Below, piece after piece: positions 1 through 57,243 of a DNA stretch of 64,000 nucleotides. The stretch is from an uncultured bacterium (GTDB lineage: Bacteria; Desulfobacterota_D; UBA1144; Nemesobacterales; UBA2774): contig CAWGRW010000009.1 of assembly GCA_963825135.1 (NCBI GenBank), positions 384,001 through 448,000 of the forward strand, read 5' to 3'. Position 1 is the stretch's first letter. Every line of letters starts with the position of its first letter. The position numbers were made by a program, and so were the translations under genes. Under the pieces are notes generated by a model, which saw nothing but the letters and a program-made list of their open reading frames with translations, did not search any database and was not told the origin of the DNA.

Positions 1-3000
1 GGTTTCCATCCATATTAAATCGGCGTAAGGGGCCACGGCGAGCGACTTCGCTATCGCGTATTCTATGCCGCCCTTTACCTGATAGTAGCCCTCGGGCGTC
101 CTCGACAGCTCGCAGTCCCAGGGCGCCTCTATGCCCATATGCTTCGCCTTGTCCCTCGCGTGCTGGTAGGAGGCGTGTTTCGCGAATTCGAACCACTCCT
201 CTATGGTCATCCCGAGGTTCCTGCCCTCTTCTATCGCGAACTCCATCTGCTCGGCGACCGCCTGGTCGTACGTCATAAGCCCGGATTCTACTTCCCAGGT
301 CTCGACGAACTTGCTGGCCGCGTTCTCGAGCGGCTTGGTGATGCTCCTCTCCTTCCCTTCCTTGAGCGCCTGTATGCTCTTGTCGATAATAGGCGTGAGG
401 CCCACCTTGTCGAACCACTCGTAGACCTCGTCGTACTCGGCGTCGGAGATATTGTAGAGCATAAAGCCGTTCACGTCCGTGATGCCCTTGTCGTAAAACC
501 TCTTAAGAATCGCGAGATAACAGTTCTTGTATCCGGGTACGGTCGTGACGGTCGCTCCCAATATGAACGGCTGGTCGCGCTCGTCTCCCCTTCCGTCGAG
601 GAGGTTTGCGGCCTCGGCGTCCGTACGGGCGACGATGATCCCCGGCACTTTCATAATGTCGAGCTGGAACCTCGCCGCGTTCAACCTCTTTATCTGCTCG
701 TCAACAGGCACGAGCGCCTTCCCTCCCTGGTGGCCGCATTTCTTCGTGCCGGGCTTCTGGTCCTCTATGTGATACCCCGTCACGCCCGCTTCGACGAACC
801 TCTTTATGAGGTTCCTGACGTGGGCGTCTCCTCCGTGCCCCGTGTCGGCGTCGGCTATTATGAACGGCCTGTAATCGACCTTGGGAGTGGCCTTCCTCTC
901 CTTCTCCGACATGCGCGACCTCATGAACTTCTGGTTCCGGTCGGCCGTGAGGAGCGCGCGGACGAGCCCTGCAGCCTCATCGGGCACCTGGCTCAGCGGA
1001 TAGCTCGCGAGGTCCGGGCCCGGGTCTTCCGAGAGAGACCCTTTCGCGGACGTAGCCCATCCGCCGAGATATATCCCTTCTATGCCTATGCGCTTCATCG
1101 TCACTATCTGGCCCGGAGAATAGGGCCCGAACGTCGTTATCTGCTCGCCCCGGGCGAAGAGCTCCCGGAGCCTGGTGTAGAATTCCTCGGAATATTTCCT
1201 TGCCACCGTGTAGTCGTTTTCGATAGTGCCCGCCTGCTGCACGACCTGGCGCGCGGAGTAAAGACGCCTTATGCCCTTGAACCTCGGCCTCGCGAACCAG
1301 TCCTTCATCTCCCTCACCTCCCTTTCGAAGGAGTCGAGCTCGTCCTCGAGCGTGGTGTCGAGCCTCGAGTCGGGGAGGAAGTCGAGGTTCTCGGTGATCC
1401 TCGTGCCGTCCTTTTTGAACGCGTCCATGTACTGCTTTATCCTGATTTTCGCCGTCGAGAGGTCGTGGTTGTTGAGGTTCATGTTGAGGAGGTCGATGTA
1501 CCAGGGCGTCTTGATGTTATCGAGCACGTACGTCTCGACGATCTCCCTCGCTATCGGCAGAGTGGTGGGCTTGGAGTCGTCGTGGACGTCCTTGTCCTTC
1601 GCCTGGAGGAGCTTGTCGTATTCCTCGGCGAGGAGCCTCTCGAAGAGGTCCGAGGTGTATATGTCCCCCGCCTTTACACCGGTCTCGCTATCGTCCTCGG
1701 TCAGTACCGCGCCCTTGTCCACCCATTCCCAGAGAATGCTCAGGCGTATCTCGCCCGTAGCCATGTCTTCCATCAAGTACAGTATGTCGTCGTTGCCGAA
1801 GAAATCGGCCGGCTTGAGCGCCGCCGCCTGAAAACCCTGTCCGAAAGCGTTCCCGTACTGAAGGGCGACCGACATCAGGTTCCTTGCCCCCCTTATAGTC
1901 CGGGGCGCCGGCTCGAGCAGAGTGAGCCCGTCCGCGTCTTCGTCGGTATAGGTGAGCGGCGGGAATTTCCTTCCCATCTGGTTTTCCTGCCCCGCTTCTT
2001 CCCATACGGGCCTGATTATATGCACCATCTTCCAGTGCGCGACCCACTTCCCGCTCGCCCCCTCCTGCTGCTCACGCTTGGCCCCTTCGACCGCTTTCTT
2101 CATGCTTTCTTTTACGCCTTTATCCGAGCCTACGGGGATGTTGGGCTCCATGCCGCCCTGCCACAGCGCGTAGTTGTGGTTGACTCCGGGCGTGTTTACT
2201 GCTCTCCTGACCCGGTCCTCGTAATTCCTCATATAGCCGTACGTCATCGTTATCGATTCTATGTTCGGGTTAATGAACGACTGGTCCCACGCCATGGCGT
2301 CGGACACGCTGTTTATGTAATCCCACCTGCCGGTGTTGAACCCCACAAAATGTCTGCCCAGGGCCGCGCGTATCTCCATCAGCTGGAACGTGGCTTCGAG
2401 CTGCTCGATGAGGACGTACACCTTGATCGTGCCTAACGGGATGCTCAGGTGGTCCTCGAGCGCCGAAAGGAGCTCGTTCCAAAAGGCGGCCTCTTCAGCC
2501 GTCTGTATTTTGGGAAGGTACAGCACCACCGACGAGCCCGACTTATCGAGCTCCTGATAGTTATTTACGACGTAAAGGACGACGTCCACGATGGATGCCG
2601 AAAGCATGAGCCCGTTCTCGTCCCTGATGTGCCTGTCGTCGAGGTGGAGCCCCCTGGCCCTGAATATCTTGGTCGTGAAGTCGAGCTGTTTTCTCCAGTC
2701 TATGATTATGTCCCGCCCCAGAAACCCCTTCGCCCATTCGTTCATCTCGCGGGAGACCTGCTCGGCGACGTTCATGAACATGGGGTCTTTCCTGATGGCA
2801 AGCTTCAGATTCCTCTGGTTGTCGAGCGACATGGTGTTGATCTGACCGAGGGCGTCCTCGCCGTCGAACATCCAGCCGTCAGCGCCCGACAGCAGCGCGT
2901 ATGCGACGTTGCGTATGCTCTTGTCTATGGACGTATTCGGCTTGGCGGCCGGGCCCGTGCCCTGTACCCACTGCCTTTGGAGGTCGTGCGGCACTTCGGA

Positions 3001-3623: not shown

Positions 3624-3793
3624 AAATCCCCCTTAATCTGGTTTCAAATACCCTGTCGCTTCGATCAAGGGATTTCTTTGCTTTTAATCATCTCCGACCA
3701 ATTCCTCCGATTTGTCGGAATTGTTCCCCTTTTCCAAAGGGGGAAAGTAATTTTTGATTCCCTCCTTAGAAATAGGAGGGTTAGGGAGGATTT
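3624..3793. repeat. REP-like CCCCCTT...AAGGGGG / CCCTCCTT...AAGGAGGG composite, interrupted by mini-element copy 1
   Basis: Collinear with the uninterrupted composite at 39367-39448 except for a ~90-bp insert. Confidence 0.85.
3635..3725 (+). mobile_element. ~90-bp REP-inserted mini-element, copy 1
   Basis: AATCTGG + 53 nt + CGACC + AATTCC-loop-GGAATT + GTT. Confidence 0.75.
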
Positions 3794-3816
3794 AATTATT
3801 CCTTTAAAAAATAGAC

Positions 3817-3879
3817 CATGGGACAGATGGGACATACGCGCGGAGTATATACCCGGATCATGTGTCCCAATGTCCCATG
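3817..3879. repeat. Palindromic TGGGACA..TGTCCCA repeat, copy 1
   Basis: catgggacagatgggaca...tatacccggat..tgtgtcccaatgtcccatg. Second copy at 11065-11122. Confidence 0.85.
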
Positions 3880-3896
3880 TGATTCGGGAGGGACGT

Positions 3897-10351: not shown

Positions 10352-10423
10352 CCTCCCTCCTTTATAAAAAGACGGAGTTAAAAGCATTTTCCCCCTTTAG
10401 CAAAGGGGGATTCAGGGGGATTT
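10352..10423. repeat. REP-like CCCCCTT...AAGGGGG family
   Basis: ccccctttagcaaagggggattcagggggattt. Confidence 0.8.
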
Positions 10424-10545
10424 ATCTTTTCCGAAATTTCGGTACAAATATTCCCGGTAGTGTTGTGGGATTCGGTTATCAGAGTGGGATCTTTTGGGTT
10501 ATATTATAAAGTTAATATGAACCTAAAAAACTTATAGGAGCATTA

Positions 10546-11040
10546 ATGGGATCGAATCAAACAATTATAGCACCCTTAGTAAACGCTAATATTAGACCCT
10601 ATGCATTTCAATTTTATGCAAGAGACTTCTATAAGGCGTATAAGAAACACAAAGACGGTCTTCCTTTTTCTCCAGCGAGATTTTTTTTGCTTTCCCGAAG
10701 CATAGAGCTTGCAGCAAAAAGCCTTTATCTTGCTGATGGAATGCCGGCGGAAGATTTAAATAATATCAATCACGACCTCAGCAAAGCATGTGATCCTGAT
10801 ATTCTTAAAAAATTCGGCGTAAGTTTATCATCGGACCAAATAAGTGAATTATTGAAGGCTAATGACTATTATAAGCATAAAGGATTTGAGTATTTTTTAT
10901 ATAAGTATGGTAACTGGAAAAGTAGTGACTTCGGGAGCTCTGGGCCACAAATGGCGTTAACAGGTTGGCCGAATCTTCCGGATGTAAACATTCTTGAGTC
11001 TATAGTTGATTTGCTTCTGTCAATAAAACTGCCGGATTAA
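10546..11040 (+). CDS. Low-GC hypothetical protein, HEPN-like fold
   Basis: AGGAG SD, AT-rich codons, SIELAAKSLYL...HDL pattern typical of HEPN helical bundles. Confidence 0.6.
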   Translation: MGSNQTIIAPLVNANIRPYAFQFYARDFYKAYKKHKDGLPFSPARFFLLSRSIELAAKSLYLADGMPAEDLNNINHDLSKACDPDILKKFGVSLSSDQISELLKANDYYKHKGFEYFLYKYGNWKSSDFGSSGPQMALTGWPNLPDVNILESIVDLLLSIKLPD

Positions 11041-11064: not shown

Positions 11065-11122
11065 TGGGACAATGGGACAGACGGGCAGGGTATATACCCG
11101 GATATTGTGTCCCGATGTCCCA
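11065..11122. repeat. Palindromic TGGGACA..TGTCCCA repeat, copy 2
   Basis: Near-identical to 3817-3879 and in the same orientation. Confidence 0.85.
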
Positions 11123-11166
11123 TGGGAGAATAACAGGGATATTAATGTACACCCCCCACCCTACCT

Positions 11167-11255
11167 AATTTGGCTCAGGCATCAATGAGCCGGAATTGAG
11201 CACAATGACGCTTTCGTTTTCACAGCGACCTGCTTCTCGCTCGCTCGAAGCAGTT
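11167..11255 (+). mobile_element. ~90-bp REP-inserted mini-element, copy 2
   Basis: AATTTGG + 52 nt + CGACC + TGCTTC-tcgctcgctc-GAAGCA + GTT, inside a CCCACCCTACCT...CCCCTCCAATAGAGGGAGAGGG REP. Confidence 0.8.
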
Positions 11256-11329
11256 CCCCTCCAATAGAGGGAGAGGGAAAGAAAACTGTGTCGCATCTGT
11301 CGGATTCTACCGCGATCTGGCACGCCGCA

Positions 11330-11359
11330 TTGACATAACCCCCCGTTAGGAAATATAAT
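11330..11359 (+). promoter_or_regulatory. sigma70 promoter
   Basis: TTGACA-N18-TATAAT upstream of the IPTL-CTERM gene. Confidence 0.7.
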
Positions 11360-11392
11360 CATCGGGAAAGAGCATTAATTAAAGGAGGATGT

Positions 11393-12082
11393 ATGATGAG
11401 AAACGGAATTAATATCCTGCCGTTGATTATTTTCCTGTGTATGTCGATAGCCTTTTTCAGCCGCGAAGCCGACGCCCAGACTTACCTGCCCGTCGGGCCG
11501 CAGGTGGACGTTCCCGTCTCCGTCGTCTCCACGGGCGGATGGACGGAGTGTTACAGGGATACCTATGACAACCAACTGAACGCGGAAACCGTGCTTGAGC
11601 AATGTCCCGGCGAGCTCCTCATGTTGTCCTGCCGGCCGACCGGGAGCAGTACGCTGACCCTCCTCGCCCAGGGCGCGCGGGAGGATGTGACTTTCGATAC
11701 GGGCGCGAATTTGGATGTTACTCATATCGCAAACGGCGTCGGCTGGTATTTCAACATATCGGCTCCAGGTGAAAATAATCAAGGCCAGAACGCCTGGGGA
11801 TTCGTAAGGGCGGGGGACAGCGTGAACAAGAACAATTGCGATACCCTTGAGAGCGGCGCTAACGATGAAAGGCTATGCTGGCACCTGCTAATAGGCGAAG
11901 GCGGATACAGGTGCGGCGAGACAGAGGACCTGAACGAATCTACGGCGTTCGAGCGCGTCGTCTATACTCCGGCTGTGTCGAAGCCTATTCCCACTCTTTC
12001 CCAATGGGGCCTGATCGCTATGGCCGGCATTCTGGGTCTCGCCGGACTTCTGATCGCGAGAAGAAGGAAAGCGGCCGCGTAA
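11393..12082 (+). CDS. Secreted protein with IPTL-CTERM sorting signal
   Basis: Signal peptide, Cys-containing domain, C-terminal IPTLSQWGLI + TM + RRRK. Confidence 0.9.
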   Translation: MMRNGINILPLIIFLCMSIAFFSREADAQTYLPVGPQVDVPVSVVSTGGWTECYRDTYDNQLNAETVLEQCPGELLMLSCRPTGSSTLTLLAQGAREDVTFDTGANLDVTHIANGVGWYFNISAPGENNQGQNAWGFVRAGDSVNKNNCDTLESGANDERLCWHLLIGEGGYRCGETEDLNESTAFERVVYTPAVSKPIPTLSQWGLIAMAGILGLAGLLIARRRKAAA

Positions 12083-25681: not shown

Positions 25682-25883
25682 TTCATACCTCGGACACACA
25701 GGTGTGTTTTATGATTTCTTTGTGATCTCTCTGCAATCCCTGATATCGTCACCCTGAACTTGTTTCAGGGCCACATCTTTAAACCAACCCCAAAGAACCC
25801 CAGTAATTTTATATGGGTTTTACGAAGCATCAAGTTTGGATTAGCTTGCACTCCAGCGCACAAGAAGGTACGAAATAGATCTT

Positions 25884-25916
25884 CCCCCTTAGAAAAAGGG
25901 GGATTGAGGGGGATTT
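25884..25916. repeat. REP-like CCCCCTT...AAGGGGG family
   Basis: cccccttagaaaaagggggattgagggggattt, nearly identical to 47478-47510. Confidence 0.85.
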
Positions 25917-25991
25917 AAATTCATATTTTTGAGAGAAAAAATTAAGTGAAAGGAAATGAATAAAAGATAAATCCACCCTCACCCTGACCCT

Positions 25992-26081
25992 AATTTGGTT
26001 TTGGCAGCGTTGAGTCGGAAGTTAAGGTGCTTCTGTGTCTCTGATCTGGGTCAACCGAATGCTCACTTGCTCACATTCGTT
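25992..26081 (+). mobile_element. ~90-bp REP-inserted mini-element, copy 3
   Basis: AATTTGG + 53 nt + CAACC + GAATG-ctcacttgctca-CATTC + GTT, inside a CCCTCACCCTGACCCT...CCCTCAAGGGAGAGGG REP. Confidence 0.8.
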
Positions 26082-26154
26082 CCCTCAAGGGAGAGGGAAA
26101 CAACTTCATAGAGTTGGCCGGGCAGTAGAGAAACGCAGCAACCGTAAAACCACG

Positions 26155-27420: not shown

Positions 27421-27630
27421 ATCCGTCTTTTTCTTTCCGACATTACAGAATTTGCGTTAAGAAAATCGCGTGTTTAAGCGTTAAGAAATCTTTGAGCAGT
27501 CCAATTGAAAGATTTTAGCTTAAACACAAGATTTTTAGCGTAATTCTGTAGTCGGATGATTTTTGCTTCTTTTCATCTAGGAAAAGAAGTATACAAAAAA
27601 CATCCTTTCACCGTTCTTTGTCTTTTCGTC
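27421..27630. repeat. AT-rich dispersed repeat with ~120-nt imperfect hairpin, copy 1
   Basis: CCGAC(27437)...GTCGG(27555) nested inverted repeats, then CTTCTTTTC..GAAAAGAAG hairpins. Near-identical copy at 41251-41550. Confidence 0.9.
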
Positions 27631-27668
27631 TAGGAAAAGAGGAAATAAATATCCTGCCTTTCTCTTTC

Positions 27669-33881: not shown

Positions 33882-33928
33882 TGTCATTTCGACCGGAGGG
33901 AGAAATCCGTTATTGAAGCGAAATGACA
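33882..33928. repeat. REP-like TGTCATTTCG...CGAAATGACA element
   Basis: Inverted repeat; the same family hosts mini-element copy 5 at 41143-41254. Confidence 0.75.
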
Positions 33929-37690: not shown

Positions 37691-37782
37691 GTTTTGGATT
37701 AATCGGCAATGTGCCGGGTATATAAGCTCTTCTCTGCCATCGGACAGAGGCGACCGGATGCTTTCACTTGCTCGCATTCGTT
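37691..37782 (+). mobile_element. ~90-bp REP-inserted mini-element, copy 4
   Basis: GTTTTGG + 53 nt + CGACC + GGATGC-tttcacttgctc-GCATTC + GTT, inside a CCCTCACCCTACCT...CCCTCAAGGGAGAGGG REP. Confidence 0.8.
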
Positions 37783-37932
37783 CCCTCAAGGGAGAGGGAA
37801 ATACTTTGGATGAACGATCATGTCTAGCTGATGAAGCAGTGAATCATTGTTACGCACCCCCTCACATTAGAAAAAAATCCCCGATATGGCATAATTATTT
37901 CTCCCTAAACACATAAGCCAAGGAGGAGTTTC

Positions 37933-39339: not shown

Positions 39340-39366
39340 AAGGGGGCTTTGCGAAAAGCATACGGA

Positions 39367-39448
39367 AAATCCCCCTGAATCCCCCTTTTCCAAAGGGGGA
39401 GAGTGACTTTAATTCCCTCCTTAGAAAAAGGAGGGTTAGGGAGGATTT
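39367..39448. repeat. Uninterrupted CCCCCTT/CCCTCCTT REP composite
   Basis: Empty-site equivalent of 3624-3793. Confidence 0.85.
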
Positions 39449-39491
39449 GAATTTACGCCCTTTCAAACACGAGCATTATCGGAGGCAAACG

Positions 39492-40974: not shown

Positions 40975-41065
40975 TCAGAAATCTTCATAGGCGAGCCTGA
41001 ACGCTTCCTTCCCGTCCTTCTCTATAATGTCCTTATGCGCGAGCAGCACCCGGTCGAAGGGCGGA
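40975..41065 (-). pseudogene. Probable 3' gene remnant (DUF4336-like C-terminus)
   Basis: PFDRVLLAHKDIIEKDGKEAFRLAYEDF* in host-like codons; upstream sequence is REP/mini-element DNA. Confidence 0.4.
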
Positions 41066-41155
41066 GTTTTTCCTTCCCCGCCATTACACAATTTGCGGCG
41101 GGTGAGCACCCGCAGGCGTACGACCTCGAGCATCTCCTTTCCCGTCATTTCGAAC

Positions 41156-41245
41156 AACAGTTGCAAGCGCGCGCGCAACTGGTCGCCGTTGGTTGATTGC
41201 AAATAACCTGAATCGACATCGTATATAATCCGCGTAAACCAAAAC
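41156..41245 (-). mobile_element. ~90-bp REP-inserted mini-element, copy 5 (minus strand)
   Basis: Minus strand GTTTTGG + 53 nt + CGACC + AGTTGC-loop-GCAACT + GTT, inside a GTCATTTCGAAC...GAGAAATCC REP. Confidence 0.8.
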
Positions 41246-41250
41246 GAGAA

Positions 41251-41550
41251 ATCCGTCTTTCGTCTTTCTCTTCCCGACATTACAGAATTTGCGTTAAGAA
41301 AATCGCGTGTTTAAGCGTAAAGAAATCTTTGAGCAGTCCAATTGAAAGATTTTAGCTTAAACATAAGATTTTTAGCAAATTATGTAGTCGGATGATTTTT
41401 GCTTCTTTTCATCAAGGAAAAGAAGGAATTAAATTAGCCTTTGTCTTTTCCTTCCTTTGCCTTTTCTTTTTCGAATGATCACACTATGTATGTTCATCAA
41501 GGAAAAGAAGGATAAAAAAAATATCCTTTCTCCTTTCTTTGTCTTTTCAT
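41251..41550. repeat. AT-rich dispersed repeat with ~120-nt hairpin, copy 2
   Basis: CCGAC(41274)...GTCGG(41391); near-identical to 27437-27589. Confidence 0.9.
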
Positions 41551-41583
41551 TTGACCCACATTCCCTCTTTCGAAAACGAAATA

Positions 41584-42162
41584 TCAAAATAGCCTCCCCT
41601 CCCGGTACGCGTGATATATGGACTTCATGTGCTCGTCCACGCCCGGGGCGAGGAACTGGAGAAGGAGGCATTCGAGCGACGAAACGACCAGGAGCGCGAG
41701 CGCCGCGTAGAAAAACGCCTCGTTGTAACCTATGACGAACGTGTATATGACGAACACGTACGCGGCTACTCCAGCGGCCTTGGTCAGATAGAGGTGGAGA
41801 TTCGCGATCCTCCTGAACTTTATCCACCCGAGGAGGATCGAGGCCGCCTCGATCGCTATCCATGCGCCGAGTACGAGCGCGTGGCCGGTAATGATCTCAG
41901 GCTTAAGCAGCAGGAGAGCGCCCAGGGCCGATATTTCCATGAGCGTATCCGCTATGGAATCGAGCCTGCTCCCGTAAGCCGTGGCGATGTTCCGCCTCCG
42001 CGCGATAAAGCCGTCGAGCACGTCGGTGAGACCCGCCGCGAGGAGCGCGATCCCTGTGTAGAACGGCAGCCCCGATGCCGCGAGCGCCAGGACTACCGGG
42101 ACCAAGAGGAGCCTCGCGAAGCAGAGCAGATCGGGGACTGATTTAAAGGATATGTATTTCAT
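41584..42162 (-). CDS. CDP-alcohol phosphatidyltransferase family
   Basis: TDVLDGFIARR...GSRLDSIAD motif. Confidence 0.92.
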   Translation of the reverse strand: MKYISFKSVPDLLCFARLLLVPVVLALAASGLPFYTGIALLAAGLTDVLDGFIARRRNIATAYGSRLDSIADTLMEISALGALLLLKPEIITGHALVLGAWIAIEAASILLGWIKFRRIANLHLYLTKAAGVAAYVFVIYTFVIGYNEAFFYAALALLVVSSLECLLLQFLAPGVDEHMKSIYHAYREGRLF

Positions 42163-47465: not shown

Positions 47466-47477
47466 GTTCTTTATTTT

Positions 47478-47559
47478 CCCCCTTAGAAAAAGGGGGATTA
47501 AGGGGGATTTAAAAAGAATAAAAGAAAATCCTCCCTGGCCCTCCTTTTCCTAAGGAGGG
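47478..47559. repeat. REP-like CCCCCTT / CCCTCCTT family
   Basis: Same motifs as 25884 and 39367. Confidence 0.85.
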
Positions 47560-47709
47560 AATTAAATAAAAAAGAAAAATGAAAGAAACCAACAGGGAGG
47601 GGATTGGAGGAGGCGTTCTTCGACAGGTTCAGGACAAACGGGTTTTTTAAATTCCCAATCGGCGTCAGGAATGGCAGAATACAAAAACGAGATTGCCGCG
47701 CTGCTTCGT

Positions 47710-47883
47710 AATTTGGTTTCTGTGACTTAGGGGCGAAGATGAAGGGGCTTATTTGCAATCAGTCCGGGGCGACCGATTCGTTTTGCCTTCACACGGTCTA
47801 TGCATGGAATATCGGCATTTGAGTAATCAGCGGGAGTCGGCCTATTTCTCGCATGCTCGAAACAGTACCAGCTCGCAATCGTT
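47710..47883 (+). mobile_element. Mini-element copy 6 (outer), interrupted by copy 7
   Basis: AATTTGG + 53 nt + CGACC + GATT[insert]..GCTC-GCAATC + GTT, inside a GAGATTGCC...GCAATGACA REP. Confidence 0.75.
47780..47867 (+). mobile_element. Mini-element copy 7 (nested, degenerate)
   Basis: GTTTTGC + 51 nt + CGGCC + TATTTC-tcgcatgctc-GAAACA + GTA. Confidence 0.65.
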
Positions 47884-47917
47884 GCAATGACAGATTAAAG
47901 GAAAGAATGCGGAAGGA

Positions 47918-52754: not shown

Positions 52755-55700
52755 TTACGGGGCTGCCGACGAGGCCCTCTGGCCGCTGAATTCGCAGAGG
52801 AGCTCGAGGTTCGCTTTCACGATCTCGTGCTGAGCCGGGTGCGTATTTTTCGTAAACACCTTGAGCGCCTCCTGGTACGCCTCGGACGCCTTATCGCAGT
52901 TCCTGACCCTGTCCTCTTCCTCGGCCAGGGCCGTGTAAGCCCCGCCGATGTTGTTCTGCGTCGTAGCGTACTCCAGCGGGAACCTGCCTATGGTATAGAT
53001 TATGAGCGCGGTCTCGTAGGCGTTTATCGCCCTCCTGCAGTTCTTCGCCCTGTCCTCGACCTCCGATAGCATCCTGTGGACGACGCCCAGGTTATTCTGC
53101 GTCGCCGCGAACTGCATCGGGTAATTCTGAATGGTCCTGACCTTGAGCGCCTCCTCGAAAGCGCTCCGCGCCAGCCTGCAGTTGGCCTCCTTGTCCTCGA
53201 CGTCGGCGAGCGTCATGTACGCGGTGCCGAGGTTGTTCTTCGTCGATCCGTACTGTACGGGGCGCTCTTTTTCGTTATATACCCTGAGCGCCTCCCTGTA
53301 TGAATTCACGGCCCTCTTGCAGTTCTTCCCCTTCTCCTCCCGCTCGGCGAGGGTCCTGTACACGATGCCGAGGTTGTTCTGGGTGGCGGCGTATTCGAGC
53401 GGGTATTCCTTTAAATTATAGACCCCGAGCAGGCGCTCGCAGCACCCGACCGCCTTCCTGCAGTTCCCGGCCGCGTCCTCCCGCTCGGCGAGCCGCCGGT
53501 ATATGGCGCAGAGGGCGCTCAATACGGAGGCGTACTCGGCGGGCATGCGCTCGCGCGTATAGTACCGGAGCGCTTCTTCGTACGACTCGGCGGCGGATTT
53601 CAGGTCTTCCGCGGAGTCCGAGAATCCCGAGAGGCTTTCCCAGGCCGAGGCGGCATTCCTCATGATGAGCCCGTAGTCCTTGGGGGAGGTCTCGAACGTA
53701 ACGACAGAGAGTGCTTTCCTGTAGGCCTCTAAGGCCCTCCCGAAGCATTCGGGGACCCCGTCCCTCTGCGCAATATTGCCCCACGCGATGCCCATGTACT
53801 TATGTATTTCGGCATGATCGGAAGGAGTTATCCCCGCGCCGTACGCGGCGAGCGCTTTCTCAAACGCCTCGACCGCCCGCGTATAATCCTCCGAGCGGTC
53901 ATCCACCTCCGCGAGAACGCCGTATATGAAGCCCATATTCTTTTGAATCCTGCCGTACTCGGCCGGGTGCTCCCCCGCCGCGAAGACCTCAAGCGCCTCC
54001 GTATATTCCGAAAGCGCCTTCCTGTACTCGGCCGCGTCCCCCTTTATATGGGCGAGCGTCCGGCGTATGTCGCCGAGACTTTCCTTTACCGCCGCCCGCT
54101 CTACCGGGGCGGACTCCCCCGCCATTACCCCGAGCGCCTCGCTGTAAGATGCGGCCGCGCGCTCGTAGCCCTTGACGTCCCCCGTCTGCTCCGCGAGCTT
54201 CTCCCACGCTGAGGCGGCCCCTCTCTGCGCTTGAACGAATTCGACGGGGAAATTTTCACTCGTGTAATAGGCGAGCGCTTCCTCGTACGCCCTGAGCGCG
54301 TTCCTCAGAATATTGGCGGCCCCCCTCGCTGACCCGATCTCCCCGTACGCCCTGCCCAGGCGGAGTTTAAGAGAGGCGTACCCGGCCGGGGATTCCTCCC
54401 TCGAAGCGCGCTTCAGGACTTCCTCGTAATGCGCGGCAGCCTCTTCCGGATCGTCGAATTCGACTTCGTCCGCAAGCGTTATTATCTCATCTTCATCCCC
54501 TGACGCGGGACCGGCAGCTTCAGCCCCTTCGTGCTCGTCCTCTTTCACGATCTTGAGGACGGGCCTTTCTTTTTCAGCCTCGCTCTCTACGCCGCCTCCG
54601 GCGCCGTTTCCCCCGGACAGAAATGCACGCGCCTCTTCGAGCCTCTTCGCGGTCTCCTCGCGCTCGGGGGCGAATTCCCCGGCCGTGTTCACGGCCAGTG
54701 CCTCTTCGAAGTCGCGGACGGCGAGCTCCATCTGCCCCCGCTCTCCCGTAATCAGGCAGAGCGCCGCCCGGAGCTTCCCGGTCTCGAGCCTGACCCCCGC
54801 GCACTCGCGCGGATACCCCGCAGGGCTCAGGACGGCGAGCGCCCGCCCGTAGGAGTCAAGCGCCTTGAGCGAGTTCTGAACCGGGTCTTCGGCCCCGCCC
54901 AGGCGGGCGTACGCCGACCCCAGGGACGCGTGTAAAAGGGCGTGCTCGTAAGGGAAATGCGCCTCCGAATAATAGCCGAGCGCTTCCTGATAGTATCCGA
55001 TTTTATTGCTGACGTTTCCCGTCCATTCCTCCGCGAGCTCTTTGAGGAGCCCGCCCAGGAGCCCGCATATCTCTCTCCTCTTTTCGGGCTGCTCCTCCTC
55101 CGTATAGAAGCCGAGCGCTTCCCTGTAGGAATCGACGGCCAGCTCCGCGCTCGCGGCCCTGCCCGATTTCTCCGGCAGACCCCTGTAGAAATCGCCCAGT
55201 CTTACGTGGGCCTCCGCGTACTCCCGCGGGCGGCCGAGCGCGTCATAGAGGCCGAGCGGCCCTCTAAGGGCCTCGGCCGCCCCCTCGTAGTCGCCCGACC
55301 CCTCGAGGGAACGGGCGAGCGACGCGTATAGCCCCGCGAGAGTGAGGGCCCTTTCCTCGCAGCCCCCTTCCCCGCCGGCTGCGGCCGCGTAAATGGAGGC
55401 CGAATACGCGGCTATGGCTCTTTTCAGATCGAGCGCGTCCCCGCCTTCGCGGTAGAGCCTTTCGAAGACCTCCCCGAGCTTCCTCCCGTTGGCCGAGTGC
55501 TCCTTACGCGCGATCTCCTCCGGGTAATAAAGGAGCGCCTCGTCGTAGTATTCTATAGCCCTGTCCGGGTTATTAGATTCGGCTTCGATGTCGCCAAGCG
55601 CCTTGTACACGTTCCCGATCCTGATATTGAGCCCGGCGGTCTCCGCGTCCCCGCCCCGGCCCGTATGCGAGGAGAGAGCTTCCTTATAGGCGGCGAGCGC

Positions 55701-56927
55701 CCGTTCGTATTCGCGCGGGTCCACGCTCTTTTGCGCGAGCGAGACGCACGCGTCGCCGAGGTTGCTGTTGGCGAGCGCGCGGTCTGACGGGGAATATGCG
55801 AACCCCCCCGATGAAAGGCATTGCCTGAGAGACTCCGCGGCATCCCTCGCGTATCCCGTCTCACCGGTCATGAGGCAGAGCGCGTTTAACGCTACGCCCA
55901 GGTTGTTGCCGACCGCCGCGAACTCGTGCGGGTACCTGTCCCTGGTGAAATGGCCGAGGGCGGTCCTGTAAAGATCAGCCGCCCTCAGGAGGCCTTCAGT
56001 GTCATCCCGCGAATCGGAATTTCGGACGAGGAGGTCGGCGAGCTTCTTCGAGGTGACGGCAGCGAGCGCCCCGGGCTTTTCACGTTCCAGTATCGATTCA
56101 TATATGGAGGCGCATCTGCCGGCGTACTCTCCGCTTAAGACGGCGCCGTCCCCGGCGGCGATTAGTCCGGCGTAGAGAGATGCGAGACAGCTGAGGATGC
56201 GGGAAGGGACCGTCCTGCCCGAAACCGCCTCCCATTCCCTGAGCCTCCCGTACAATTTATCGAGATCGGGGAATCCGAAACCCGTCCTCGATGCGAAGTG
56301 CCGGGAGATCCTGAGCGCCGTTTCTCTGAGATCCCCGTCCCCCGCGGATCCGGCGGGCCGGAGGCAGTCCTCCATGTACCTGTCGATTATTCCGGGGAGC
56401 GCTTCGTCGATTTTATTCCTTATCTGCTCCGAGGGGCTTTCACCGCTCCGGGCAACCGCTCCGGAATCCGTTTCCGGGCTCCCGGTCACGCCGGATTGTG
56501 CGAATTTATCCAAATGCGCCTGCGCGCGGCCGCGCCCGGGCTCCCCCGCCCCGTGACCGCTTTCATGTTTCGCCCCCTCAGGGTCTCCGAACGTGATTAC
56601 GAATTTCCCCCGCCCCCTGAGATATCCGAACTGGTACAGCTCGTCGGGCCCGAGCCTGTCGAGTATGAGGACGCCGAGCACGCAGTCCCCCGCGAGCTCT
56701 TCGAAGCGCTCCATGTAATGTCCGTTTAATATATTGAGATCGGAGAGGAGACTGACGCGTATGCCCTTTTGCGGGAGGTAATCCCTGAGGGCGTCCAGGA
56801 TTCGACGGGCGCTTTCCCCGTCCCCTTTTTCCGCATGCAGCACTACGCAGTTGAACTCGCTGTCGTTACCGATGAGCAAGCTCAATTCCCTCGCGCCGCG
56901 TGAGCCGGAAACAGTTCCGCTAGACAT
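52755..56927 (-). CDS. 1390-aa TPR-repeat protein with N-terminal TIR/nucleoside-deoxyribosyltransferase-like domain
   Basis: Many repeats of the form ALxVY...P..YAxTQNNLG; N-terminal alpha/beta domain LDRLGPDELYQFGYLRGRGKFVITF. Confidence 0.85.
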   Translation of the reverse strand: MSSGTVSGSRGARELSLLIGNDSEFNCVVLHAEKGDGESARRILDALRDYLPQKGIRVSLLSDLNILNGHYMERFEELAGDCVLGVLILDRLGPDELYQFGYLRGRGKFVITFGDPEGAKHESGHGAGEPGRGRAQAHLDKFAQSGVTGSPETDSGAVARSGESPSEQIRNKIDEALPGIIDRYMEDCLRPAGSAGDGDLRETALRISRHFASRTGFGFPDLDKLYGRLREWEAVSGRTVPSRILSCLASLYAGLIAAGDGAVLSGEYAGRCASIYESILEREKPGALAAVTSKKLADLLVRNSDSRDDTEGLLRAADLYRTALGHFTRDRYPHEFAAVGNNLGVALNALCLMTGETGYARDAAESLRQCLSSGGFAYSPSDRALANSNLGDACVSLAQKSVDPREYERALAAYKEALSSHTGRGGDAETAGLNIRIGNVYKALGDIEAESNNPDRAIEYYDEALLYYPEEIARKEHSANGRKLGEVFERLYREGGDALDLKRAIAAYSASIYAAAAGGEGGCEERALTLAGLYASLARSLEGSGDYEGAAEALRGPLGLYDALGRPREYAEAHVRLGDFYRGLPEKSGRAASAELAVDSYREALGFYTEEEQPEKRREICGLLGGLLKELAEEWTGNVSNKIGYYQEALGYYSEAHFPYEHALLHASLGSAYARLGGAEDPVQNSLKALDSYGRALAVLSPAGYPRECAGVRLETGKLRAALCLITGERGQMELAVRDFEEALAVNTAGEFAPEREETAKRLEEARAFLSGGNGAGGGVESEAEKERPVLKIVKEDEHEGAEAAGPASGDEDEIITLADEVEFDDPEEAAAHYEEVLKRASREESPAGYASLKLRLGRAYGEIGSARGAANILRNALRAYEEALAYYTSENFPVEFVQAQRGAASAWEKLAEQTGDVKGYERAAASYSEALGVMAGESAPVERAAVKESLGDIRRTLAHIKGDAAEYRKALSEYTEALEVFAAGEHPAEYGRIQKNMGFIYGVLAEVDDRSEDYTRAVEAFEKALAAYGAGITPSDHAEIHKYMGIAWGNIAQRDGVPECFGRALEAYRKALSVVTFETSPKDYGLIMRNAASAWESLSGFSDSAEDLKSAAESYEEALRYYTRERMPAEYASVLSALCAIYRRLAEREDAAGNCRKAVGCCERLLGVYNLKEYPLEYAATQNNLGIVYRTLAEREEKGKNCKRAVNSYREALRVYNEKERPVQYGSTKNNLGTAYMTLADVEDKEANCRLARSAFEEALKVRTIQNYPMQFAATQNNLGVVHRMLSEVEDRAKNCRRAINAYETALIIYTIGRFPLEYATTQNNIGGAYTALAEEEDRVRNCDKASEAYQEALKVFTKNTHPAQHEIVKANLELLCEFSGQRASSAAP

Positions 56928-57123: not shown

Positions 57124-57214
57124 CTTCGGCGGCCCAGCCGCCATCATGCCCCCGAGAGAGCATTAAGGCCTGTGGCTTTGCGTCCCACCCTTTCGAATGG
57201 TTTGCCTTTTCGGT
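57124..57214 (-). promoter_or_regulatory. Cyclic di-GMP-I (GEMM) riboswitch
   Basis: Minus strand AAAGGCAAACCATTCGAAAGGGTGGGACGCAAAGCCACAGGCCTTAA...GGCGGCTGGGCCGCCGAA matches the GEMM consensus (GCAAAC..GNRA..GGACGCAAAGC). Confidence 0.92.
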
Positions 57215-57243
57215 CATGGAAATTAATGACCCCAACTTGTCAA

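Follow-up and report, generated by a model that had tools for sequence, protein, structure and literature searches.

The 64,000-nt stretch analysed here (the window: positions 384,001 to 448,000 of contig CAWGRW010000009.1, hereafter C9, in the genome assembly GCA_963825135.1 of an uncultured bacterium; source genome G000, 94% complete) contains six copies of a short repeat that lies inside other, palindromic repeats. Throughout the genome this element occurs in hosts without a common sequence, always in one orientation relative to the host, and it is gained or lost as a unit inside palindromic repeats that existed before. It is best read as a non-autonomous, non-coding interspersed element of about 89 nt. 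As an explanation of its distribution we tentatively prefer hairpin-directed insertion by an enzyme acting in trans, none of which was found here, although we give this reading somewhat less than an even chance. An earlier reading of the window from the letters alone (the sequence-only reading) had proposed that the element targets unrelated families of repetitive extragenic palindromes (REPs) by their structure. Its observation is correct, and more general than stated.

Copy 5 and its host hairpin

The locus of copy 5 (41143-41254) consists of GTCATTTCGA, a 92-nt stretch and GAGAAATC; the flanks named in the sequence-only reading, GTCATTTCG and GAGAAATC, are found at 41144-41152 and 41246-41253. 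An alignment of paralogues sets nine filled loci with the 92-nt stretch against 11 empty loci with identical flanks. In the empty loci these flanks enclose only a loop of 7-8 nt, i.e. GTCATTTCGA-CCAACGG-GAGAAATC or the same arms around ACGCATGT. Because 11 empty paralogues keep both flanks, the stretch represents a genuine insertion/deletion unit in the loop of a small hairpin. On the minus strand, copy 5 runs from TTTGG to the hairpin CAGTTGC-loop-GCAACTG, after which comes GTT. The copy is part of a 500-nt mosaic (41063-41560) between two convergent genes, and the pieces of this mosaic recur tens to hundreds of times genome-wide, chiefly on contig C10 and close to the ends of C9.

The element family and its terminal hairpin

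An iterated nhmmer search of the genome, seeded with four window copies and run to convergence, yielded 127 matches at E<1e-3; 65 are near full length, and 60 of these are distinct. At below 85% identity they resolve into 38 clusters, located on C9 and C10, which indicates an old and diverse family. The covariance model (model R1), built from 38 diverse genomic copies, has 141 matches in the genome at E<=0.01, seven of them in the window. Four of these seven belong to the training alignment and match by construction, but copy 1 and both parts of copy 6 do not. The six window copies are homologous: five align over a core of about 90 nt, and copy 6 has about 95 nt extra, being an outer copy of the beta subfamily with a second copy nested in its 3' hairpin (about 47784-47870).

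We refer to the strand 5'-TTTGG ... GGCG(A/T)CC-[7-bp stem]-TCRCTYGCTC-[stem']-GTT-3' as canonical; for copy 5 this is the minus strand. The 3' terminal hairpin, termed H3, thus comprises GGCG(A/T)CC, a covarying 7-bp stem, the conserved 10-nt loop TCRCTYGCTC, the second arm and GTT. According to RNAalifold, H3 is the only structure conserved among 38 representatives, with compensatory changes at six of its seven pairs. Among 24 distinct copies from other genomes, pairing holds for 95.8% of the cells and 5/7 pairs are compensatory; none of 500 shuffles reached the pairing score of these foreign copies, whose alignment is fitted to the model. H3 is under structural selection. Further subfamilies have different bodies and share only the H3 end, one being located in the centre of a ~130-nt palindrome and another in C-box REPs (defined below), which points to H3 as the functional end. 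Mismatches within H3 on the canonical strand are more often A:C (15) than G:T (6; p = 0.08), a weak hint that the opposite strand, which is the sense strand of the IPTL-CTERM genes discussed below, is perhaps the folded one. Over the window, the element is unmatched in Rfam 15 at the gathering threshold, and a search of 41050-41600 at E<=1 returned only chance-level miRNA and snoRNA matches outside the element.

Host palindromes

A census of 63 near-full-length copies that are distinct in core plus flanks, with host labels assigned automatically and 10 rows labelled 'other' assigned by eye, places 55 copies inside palindromes: 29 in C-box REPs, 17 in R1 hairpins and nine in the H3 of another copy. 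The remaining eight form the 3' ends of IPTL-CTERM genes. The C-box REP is a C-rich/G-rich repeat of the form [C-box]-[C-arm, loop, G-arm] and hosts copies 1-4, with a duplicated arm; the R1 hairpin has the form GA(N)GA-arm-loop-arm-TGAC(A) and hosts copies 5 and 6. In all 55 non-genic copies the orientation relative to the asymmetric host is identical. Among the R1 and nested hosts there are at least seven different arm sequences, all with pairing retained. Unoccupied host forms are common, an example of an empty C-box REP being GGTACACCCCCACCCT-aa-CCCTCCCCCCTCC-TATT-GAGGGGGAGGG.

In the window, copy 1 has the C-box TCCCCCTTAA (3627-3636) on one side and the hairpin CCCCTTTTCCAAAGGGG (3727-3744) on the other; copy 2 lies between CACCCCCCACCCTACC and the hairpin CCCCTCCAATAGAGGGAGAGGG, with an IPTL-CTERM gene starting 80 nt downstream; and the host arms of copy 6 are GAGATTGCC (47689-47697) and GCAATGAC (47884-47891). 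All flanks quoted in the sequence-only reading for copies 1-6 are in place, so that its claim of palindromic hosts is borne out, and most of the 63 copies in the census indeed do not lie outside palindromes. Its claim of unrelated families holds in part: the four motifs that it distinguished in the window reduce to two superfamilies, but the genome contains at least three unrelated kinds of host palindrome.

The pairing of the flanks was quantified as the duplex energy of the two 20-nt flanks in 34 non-genic representatives with cores below 85% identity. The median is -7.15 kcal/mol, compared with -4.6 for adjacent 20-mers and -4.5 for 20-mers 89 nt apart at random intergenic positions (n=2000 each). 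An energy of -6 or better is found for 74% of the element flanks, for 26% of the adjacent controls and for 22% of the controls 89 nt apart. The Mann-Whitney test gives p = 1.5e-10 and 4.6e-12, respectively, values that overstate the significance since the copies are kin and the intergenic mask is based on crude ORF (open reading frame) calls. Flank pairing exceeds chance and the effect is large in this comparison with random intergenic positions, of the kind that the sequence-only reading had proposed. Inspection of the junctions of five host classes, furthermore, revealed no common primary target motif that would explain the sites.

R1 hairpins are themselves nested in the loops of other R1 hairpins, at positions 2770-2850 of locus L079 and at a site of genome G004 that is syntenic to the window at ~39400. 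The nested form reads GATTGC-CGCGGTCGC-[GATCCTGAAACAAGTTCAGGAC]-...-GCAA(A/T)GACA. Nesting of one hairpin in another is therefore not confined to the 89-nt element.

Distribution in relatives

The covariance model matches 22 of the 41 genomes searched, G000 included, with at least about 1,200 matches in total. All nine genomes of the same genus have matches, with 19 to more than 100 per genome among the matches listed, as do all genomes of the sister genera g4 (4/4), g5 (1/1) and g6 (3/3). Three of five genomes of sister genus g2 contain a few matches each, and the single genome from a second family has matches as well; in the 15 genomes from six other families of the order there are none. The host types recur in a sister genus (G012, G017, G020).

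Filled and empty sites

Filled and empty forms of the same site are found both within and between genomes. In the tRNA-Arg array, two adjacent units are identical except for one element copy: the empty unit has the hairpin AATTGC-TCACTTGTTC-GCAATT, and the next unit has AATT-[complete copy]-ACTTGTTC-GCAATT. Genomes G005 and G009 have the REP and its flanks in common at the site that is syntenic to window 39340-39470; G005 is filled, and G009 has AGAGGGTC instead. In G009 a copy occupies the centre of the long palindrome that is orthologous to 41266-41395; in G000 this palindrome is empty, and a sister variant of it in G000 has an insert of ~105 nt at its centre with the same hairpin end.

Within the host hairpins the site of insertion varies. 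In R1 hosts, 3-16 loop bases are left on one side and 0-4 on the other, and the break in nested hosts is located either within the arm or mid-loop. GTT/CAAC, a word common to the element ends and the empty loop, was considered as a crossover or target word and rejected; it fits only the host of copy 5 and fails for the tRNA-array pair and the G005/G009 pair.

Search for a mobilising enzyme

XerC, XerD and generic integrases make up the tyrosine recombinases of the genome, and none of them passes the integron cut-off; the best match to the integron integrase model TIGR02249 scores 159.7 bits against a cut-off of 265, and this protein is XerD. A reading of the element as an integron cassette or attC site was rejected, with no integrase over the cut-off and no R''/R' pairing around H3 by inspection. 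A few transposase genes with an rve domain (IS3/IS481-type) are present; the element lacks inverted ends. The IS91-type Y2 profile had no match in the genome, but was silent in the control genomes too. Outside the window, a split tyrosine-integrase gene (C9:2202049-2202556, minus strand) has two identical nested copies (C9:2203311 and C9:2205108) as well as two IPTL-CTERM genes at a distance of about 1 kb.

Genes for REP-associated tyrosine transposases (RAYTs), identified by a match to PF01797, occur in three of 26 genomes of the family. The RAYT of G003, a bona fide one in a genome of the same genus (NF047646, 116.6 bits), is flanked by inverted REPs of the type GTAG-GAGCGGC-TTCCA-GCCGC and not by H3, and the nearest element copy is 775 nt away. 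This REP constitutes a third type, which is also present in G000, where no RAYT was found. For the suggestion that the element hitch-hikes on REP-processing enzymes, no such enzyme was found, with neither a Y1 transposase nor a RAYT in G000 and a REP of a different, GTAG type around the RAYT of G003.

Three further classifications were rejected. Against a RAYT/REPIN or IS200/IS605 derivative stand the lack of a Y1 enzyme in G000, the different REP next to the G003 RAYT and the presence of one conserved hairpin only. A REP-targeting insertion sequence of the IS110 or IS3 type is at odds with a length of 89 nt without an ORF, no match to PF01548, at least three kinds of host and variable junctions. 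As for a MITE, or miniature inverted-repeat transposable element, the ends TTTGG... and ...CCGTTC are not inverted copies, and host bases are replaced rather than duplicated.

Explanations for the nesting in palindromes

According to the reading that we tentatively prefer, the element would enter when the host palindrome adopts the form of an extruded hairpin in single-stranded DNA. Catalysis would be in trans, by an enzyme that may have been lost from the assembly or may be a host function, and this enzyme would recognise the hairpin end of the element together with a hairpin-shaped target, not the sequence of the target. The target would be broken in its 5' arm or loop, with loss of few bases. 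After entry, element and host repeat would mostly be copied together, which would give rise to subfamilies tied to host types. The same process could account for the copies in the FF...RR codon hairpin of IPTL-CTERM genes and for the arrays behind two tRNA genes. A wider version, in which a new kind of mobile DNA, an 89-nt element without a transposase gene, homes by means of its own hairpin into any extruded hairpin by shape, be it a REP, itself, a long palindrome, the end of an IPTL-CTERM gene (whose tail is rewritten) or a tRNA end (where arrays are built), driven by a host enzyme or another enzyme of single-stranded DNA, seems unlikely to us.

Several results weigh against hairpin-directed insertion. 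The domains Y1_Tnp (PF01797), IS110 DEDD (PF01548), RVT_1, TnpB and DDE_Tnp_1 have no match in the 94%-complete genome. A bias towards one replication strand is not evident, in contrast to IS200/IS605 elements, orientations being mixed on both sides of the skew minimum in a genome whose replichore layout is uncertain. In every filled/empty pair compared, 3-8 host bases are replaced and not duplicated. For C-box REPs, 1, 2, 3 or 5 bases of the arm CCCTC precede the left junction. Mapped onto the hairpins, as the sequence-only reading had proposed, the insertion points do lie within them, but they vary between 5' arm, loop centre and loop edge, unlike those expected for a precise structure-guided transposase. 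The tree of cores has an alpha clade (99/95 support), whose 26 copies are all in C-box REPs, and a beta clade of 37 copies, which includes all R1 (17), nested (9) and genic (8) copies plus three in C-box REPs; host labels are clustered on this tree with few changes, and 0/200 shuffles were as low. Host type follows the phylogeny of the element, so that the number of independent host switches is small, and the linkage of subfamily and host suggests that co-propagation or recombination among like repeats may account for much of the spread. A small number of switches with subsequent joint copying of element and host, or with such recombination, explains much of the distribution. The filled long palindromes differ from the empty ones as a sequence variant of their own, which suggests a single insertion followed by copying. 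Furthermore, no gain event was polarised with an outgroup, and gain and loss are not distinguished in any of the comparisons; other genomes of the genus carry different repeats at the compared sites because intergenic mosaics turn over between species. Finally, a copy in G003 (L057, G003:C2, 1501-1590) has an R1 arm (GCGAGATCGCC...) as its left flank and half a C-box REP (TTTTCCAAAGGAGGGAAT) as its right flank, and this chimeric host suggests recombination between copies.

The strongest competitor, which we regard as less probable and somewhat unlikely, makes use of the same results and does without targeting: the core would be an optional internal module of the repeats that is spread by homologous recombination, gene conversion or template switching, with the repeat arms as homology and rare illegitimate events for the other hosts. 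The exclusive association of the alpha clade with C-box REPs and the clustered host labels are in agreement with it, as are the variable junctions with replaced host bases, the five enzyme domains without a match, the chimeric host in G003 and the separate variants of filled and empty long palindromes. What is more challenging for recombination is the small amount of homology offered by R1 and nested arms, which are 5-8 bp long, have at least seven sequences and enclose cores below 85% identity; this is too little for conversion. Moreover, copies occur in structures unrelated in sequence (REP, R1 hairpin, the element's own hairpin, long palindrome, gene tail), and orientation is invariant in 55/55 copies. 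The idea of structure-based targeting is supported in part: it stands on unrelated hosts, on arms that differ and still pair and on empty counterparts, but is weakened by the subfamily-host linkage and the imprecise junctions, and targeting is less free than the wording of unrelated REP families would imply.

Another possibility, quite unlikely in our judgement, is that the core and its pairing flanks form one structured RNA or single-stranded DNA element, similar to a 3' untranslated region (UTR) or a terminator, which is duplicated with neighbouring DNA and is not mobile itself; the apparent host arms would then be its covarying closing helix. Flanks do pair across the core in most copies, H3 covaries, its mismatches hint at the gene-sense strand, and eight copies serve as gene 3' end and 3' UTR. 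Yet both paralogous and orthologous sites include empty hairpins with identical arms, and the distance from arm to core is variable (3-16 nt at one side and 0-4 nt at the other). Folds of the whole unit are not unusually stable (z +1.3 to -2.1) and Rfam gave no match. Nor is there a consistent orientation to neighbouring genes: four classes of 12-14 copies each show no pattern, with gene calls that are crude in repeat regions. It could also be proposed that the filled forms are ancestral and that the empty hairpins arose by deletion of the core. Palindromes are prone to deletion, and the direction of change is polarised at no site, which leaves room for this scenario. We consider it very improbable, however, given that empty forms have complete arms and 7-8 unrelated loop bases absent from the filled forms and that copies nested in copies are hard to produce by deletion; in addition, empty REPs seemed commoner than filled ones among the rows listed, an impression without a count.

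Gene ends and tRNA-linked arrays

Eight copies constitute, on the opposite strand, the ends of genes whose products finish with ...IPTLSEWGMIAAAAGLMLVGVFFAV(R)KRLRASKQSDAVG before the stop. The basic tail and the stop codon of these genes are encoded by H3, the remainder of each copy being 3' UTR; the element provides the last ~10 residues of the affected IPTL-CTERM genes. Judged from the codons, the flanks of the genic copies may pair as well, TTCTTC (FF) with GAAGAA/GAGAAG (R/K). The window gene 11339-12082 (plus strand) matches TIGR04174, the IPTL-CTERM sorting signal, and 71 ORFs with an IPTLSEWG-type motif were found in the genome, many of them on C10 and near the ends of C9. Most IPTL-CTERM ORFs end with ...RRKRAQAV and the stop, without the element, and about a dozen have a tail derived from it (KRLRASKQS..., or RKRLQASA or RKRLQASNEFDE followed by the stop). 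Proximity of the element to IPTL-CTERM genes is weak: 33% of the copies are within 5 kb, versus 16% of random intergenic positions.

Repeats linked to tRNA genes are known from E. coli tyrT. In the present genome, array units of ~88 nt behind tRNA-Arg and tRNA-Glu match positions ~20-88 of the element model, and one complete element copy is nested in the last array unit. The units differ from the element in lacking the TTTGG end and in that each ends with a copy of the tRNA tail.

Other features of the window

Coordinates of the element copies, their hosts and neighbouring repeats are given in the table.

Table. Element copies, host hairpins and related features; positions refer to the window unless a locus is named.
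Feature	Position	Strand	Basis or remarks
Copy 1	3637..3726	+	covariance model 48 bits, E 1.6e-10; outside training set
Copy 2, alpha subfamily	11169..11256	+	covariance model E 2.1e-14
Copy 3, alpha subfamily	25994..26082	+	covariance model E 1.4e-16; between CCCTCACCCTGACCC and CCCTCAAGGGAGAGGG
Copy 4, alpha subfamily	37693..37783	+	covariance model E 7e-16; between CCCTCACCCTACC and CCCTCAAGGGAGAGGG
Copy 5, beta subfamily	41155..41243	-	covariance model 71.7 bits, E 1.4e-16
Copy 6	47712..47883	+	two covariance-model matches: 47712-47783, E 6.8e-12; 47797-47868, E 6.1e-07
Host R1 hairpin of copy 5, one arm (GTCATTTCGA)	41144..41153		sequence and paralogue alignment
Host R1 hairpin of copy 5, other arm (GAGAAATC)	41246..41253		sequence and paralogue alignment
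Repeat module beside host hairpin (CGCCATTACACAATTTGCGGCGGGTGAGCACCCGC...)	41063..41143		many genomic copies; genome BLAST and alignment
Unoccupied R1 hairpin, arms as in copy-5 host (GTCATTTCGACCGGAGGGAGAAATC)	33883..33907		sequence
Unoccupied C-box REP	39408..39449		repeat family D1/D3; compared with filled copies
Other unoccupied C-box REPs	3756-3794, 10386-10424, 25879-25917, 47473-47511		repeat family D1/D3
Long imperfect palindrome, ~130 nt, MITE-like, no insert here	41266..41395		genome BLAST, ortholog comparison
RAYT gene of G003	L079 (G003:C8:98075-101368) 1276-1902	+	NF047646

A block of ~300 nt, composed of the long palindrome and two AAGGAAAAGAAGG...CCTTTC hairpins, is present at 41261-41560 and, with 95% identity, at 27424-27660; more than 100 partial copies exist in the genome. 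The 101-aa ORF at 40975-41280 (minus strand), which overlaps copy 5, is probably spurious: it matches nothing in Pfam or NCBIfam (homologues were not searched for), it spans three repeat modules, and paralogues differ by 84-85 nt.

Near copies 1 and 2, the regions 3819-3882 and 11065-11127 are 86% identical, and their tandem TGGGACA boxes with inverted copies, operator-like in look, flank GTATATAC. An AT-rich ORF of 164 aa (10546-11040, plus strand) without a Pfam match is located between a C-box REP and a TGGGACA site and looks foreign against its surroundings of 57% GC. At 57124-57215 on the minus strand, a match to RF03167 (67.2 bits, over its gathering threshold) predicts a c-di-GMP-I-GGC riboswitch aptamer, upstream of a 1390-aa ORF (52755-56927, minus strand).

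Comparison with known systems and significance

Among the insertion sequences that insert into REPs is IS1397. ISPpu9, ISPpu10, ISPa11, ISPsy8 and ISRm22 are likewise described as inserting into REPs, which are regarded as hot spots (Tobes and Pareja 2006, PMC1525189). The element resembles them as mobile DNA found specifically inside REPs; they, however, have their own transposase and use one REP family at a defined position, whereas the element has 89 nt, no gene and at least three types of palindromic host. With the REPs and REPINs mobilised by RAYT (Y1) proteins and the hairpin-ended derivatives of IS200/IS605, as described in PMC3116915, PMC3333891 and PMC2817692, it shares the properties of a short, non-coding, high-copy and lineage-specific repeat whose hairpin has a covarying stem and a conserved tag at its foot. 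It differs from REPINs and IS200/IS605 derivatives in that no Y1 gene was found in the genome and that it does not have a hairpin near each end. A conserved target word was not seen at the junctions of five host classes, nor was a strand bias evident under the uncertain replichore layout.

Mosaics of intergenic repeats are known as the bacterial interspersed mosaic elements (BIMEs) of E. coli and as the neisserial intergenic mosaic elements (NIMEs) with dRS3. As in these, short modules bounded by small palindromes are reshuffled between loci and species; the modules are high-copy and lineage-specific, and their order varies between paralogues and species. A difference from BIMEs and NIMEs is that one class of module repeatedly lies inside palindromes, its own hairpin and gene ends and in tRNA-linked arrays. 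In integron attC sites and group IIC introns, the shape of the folded single strand and not its sequence directs recombination or insertion. Compared with attC, there is no integrase over the cut-off and H3 is without paired R''/R' core sites; compared with group IIC introns, no reverse transcriptase was found and there is no RNA of ribozyme size. In the openly accessible literature that was searched, we found neither an account of a small element inside REP hairpins nor one of repeats associated with IPTL-CTERM genes.

Outside the RAYT/REPIN model, the origin, movement and mosaic-building of REP-like repeats are poorly understood. Here, an element with about 100 or more copies per genome lies repeatedly inside unrelated palindromes and inside its own hairpin, and it also occurs in genomes where no RAYT was found. 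Should it be spread by recombination only, it would still be a clear case of how repeat mosaics grow. If insertion is directed by shape, the family would represent a compact natural system for targeting folded single-stranded DNA, and would link REP mosaics, tRNA-linked repeats and repeat-derived protein C-termini.

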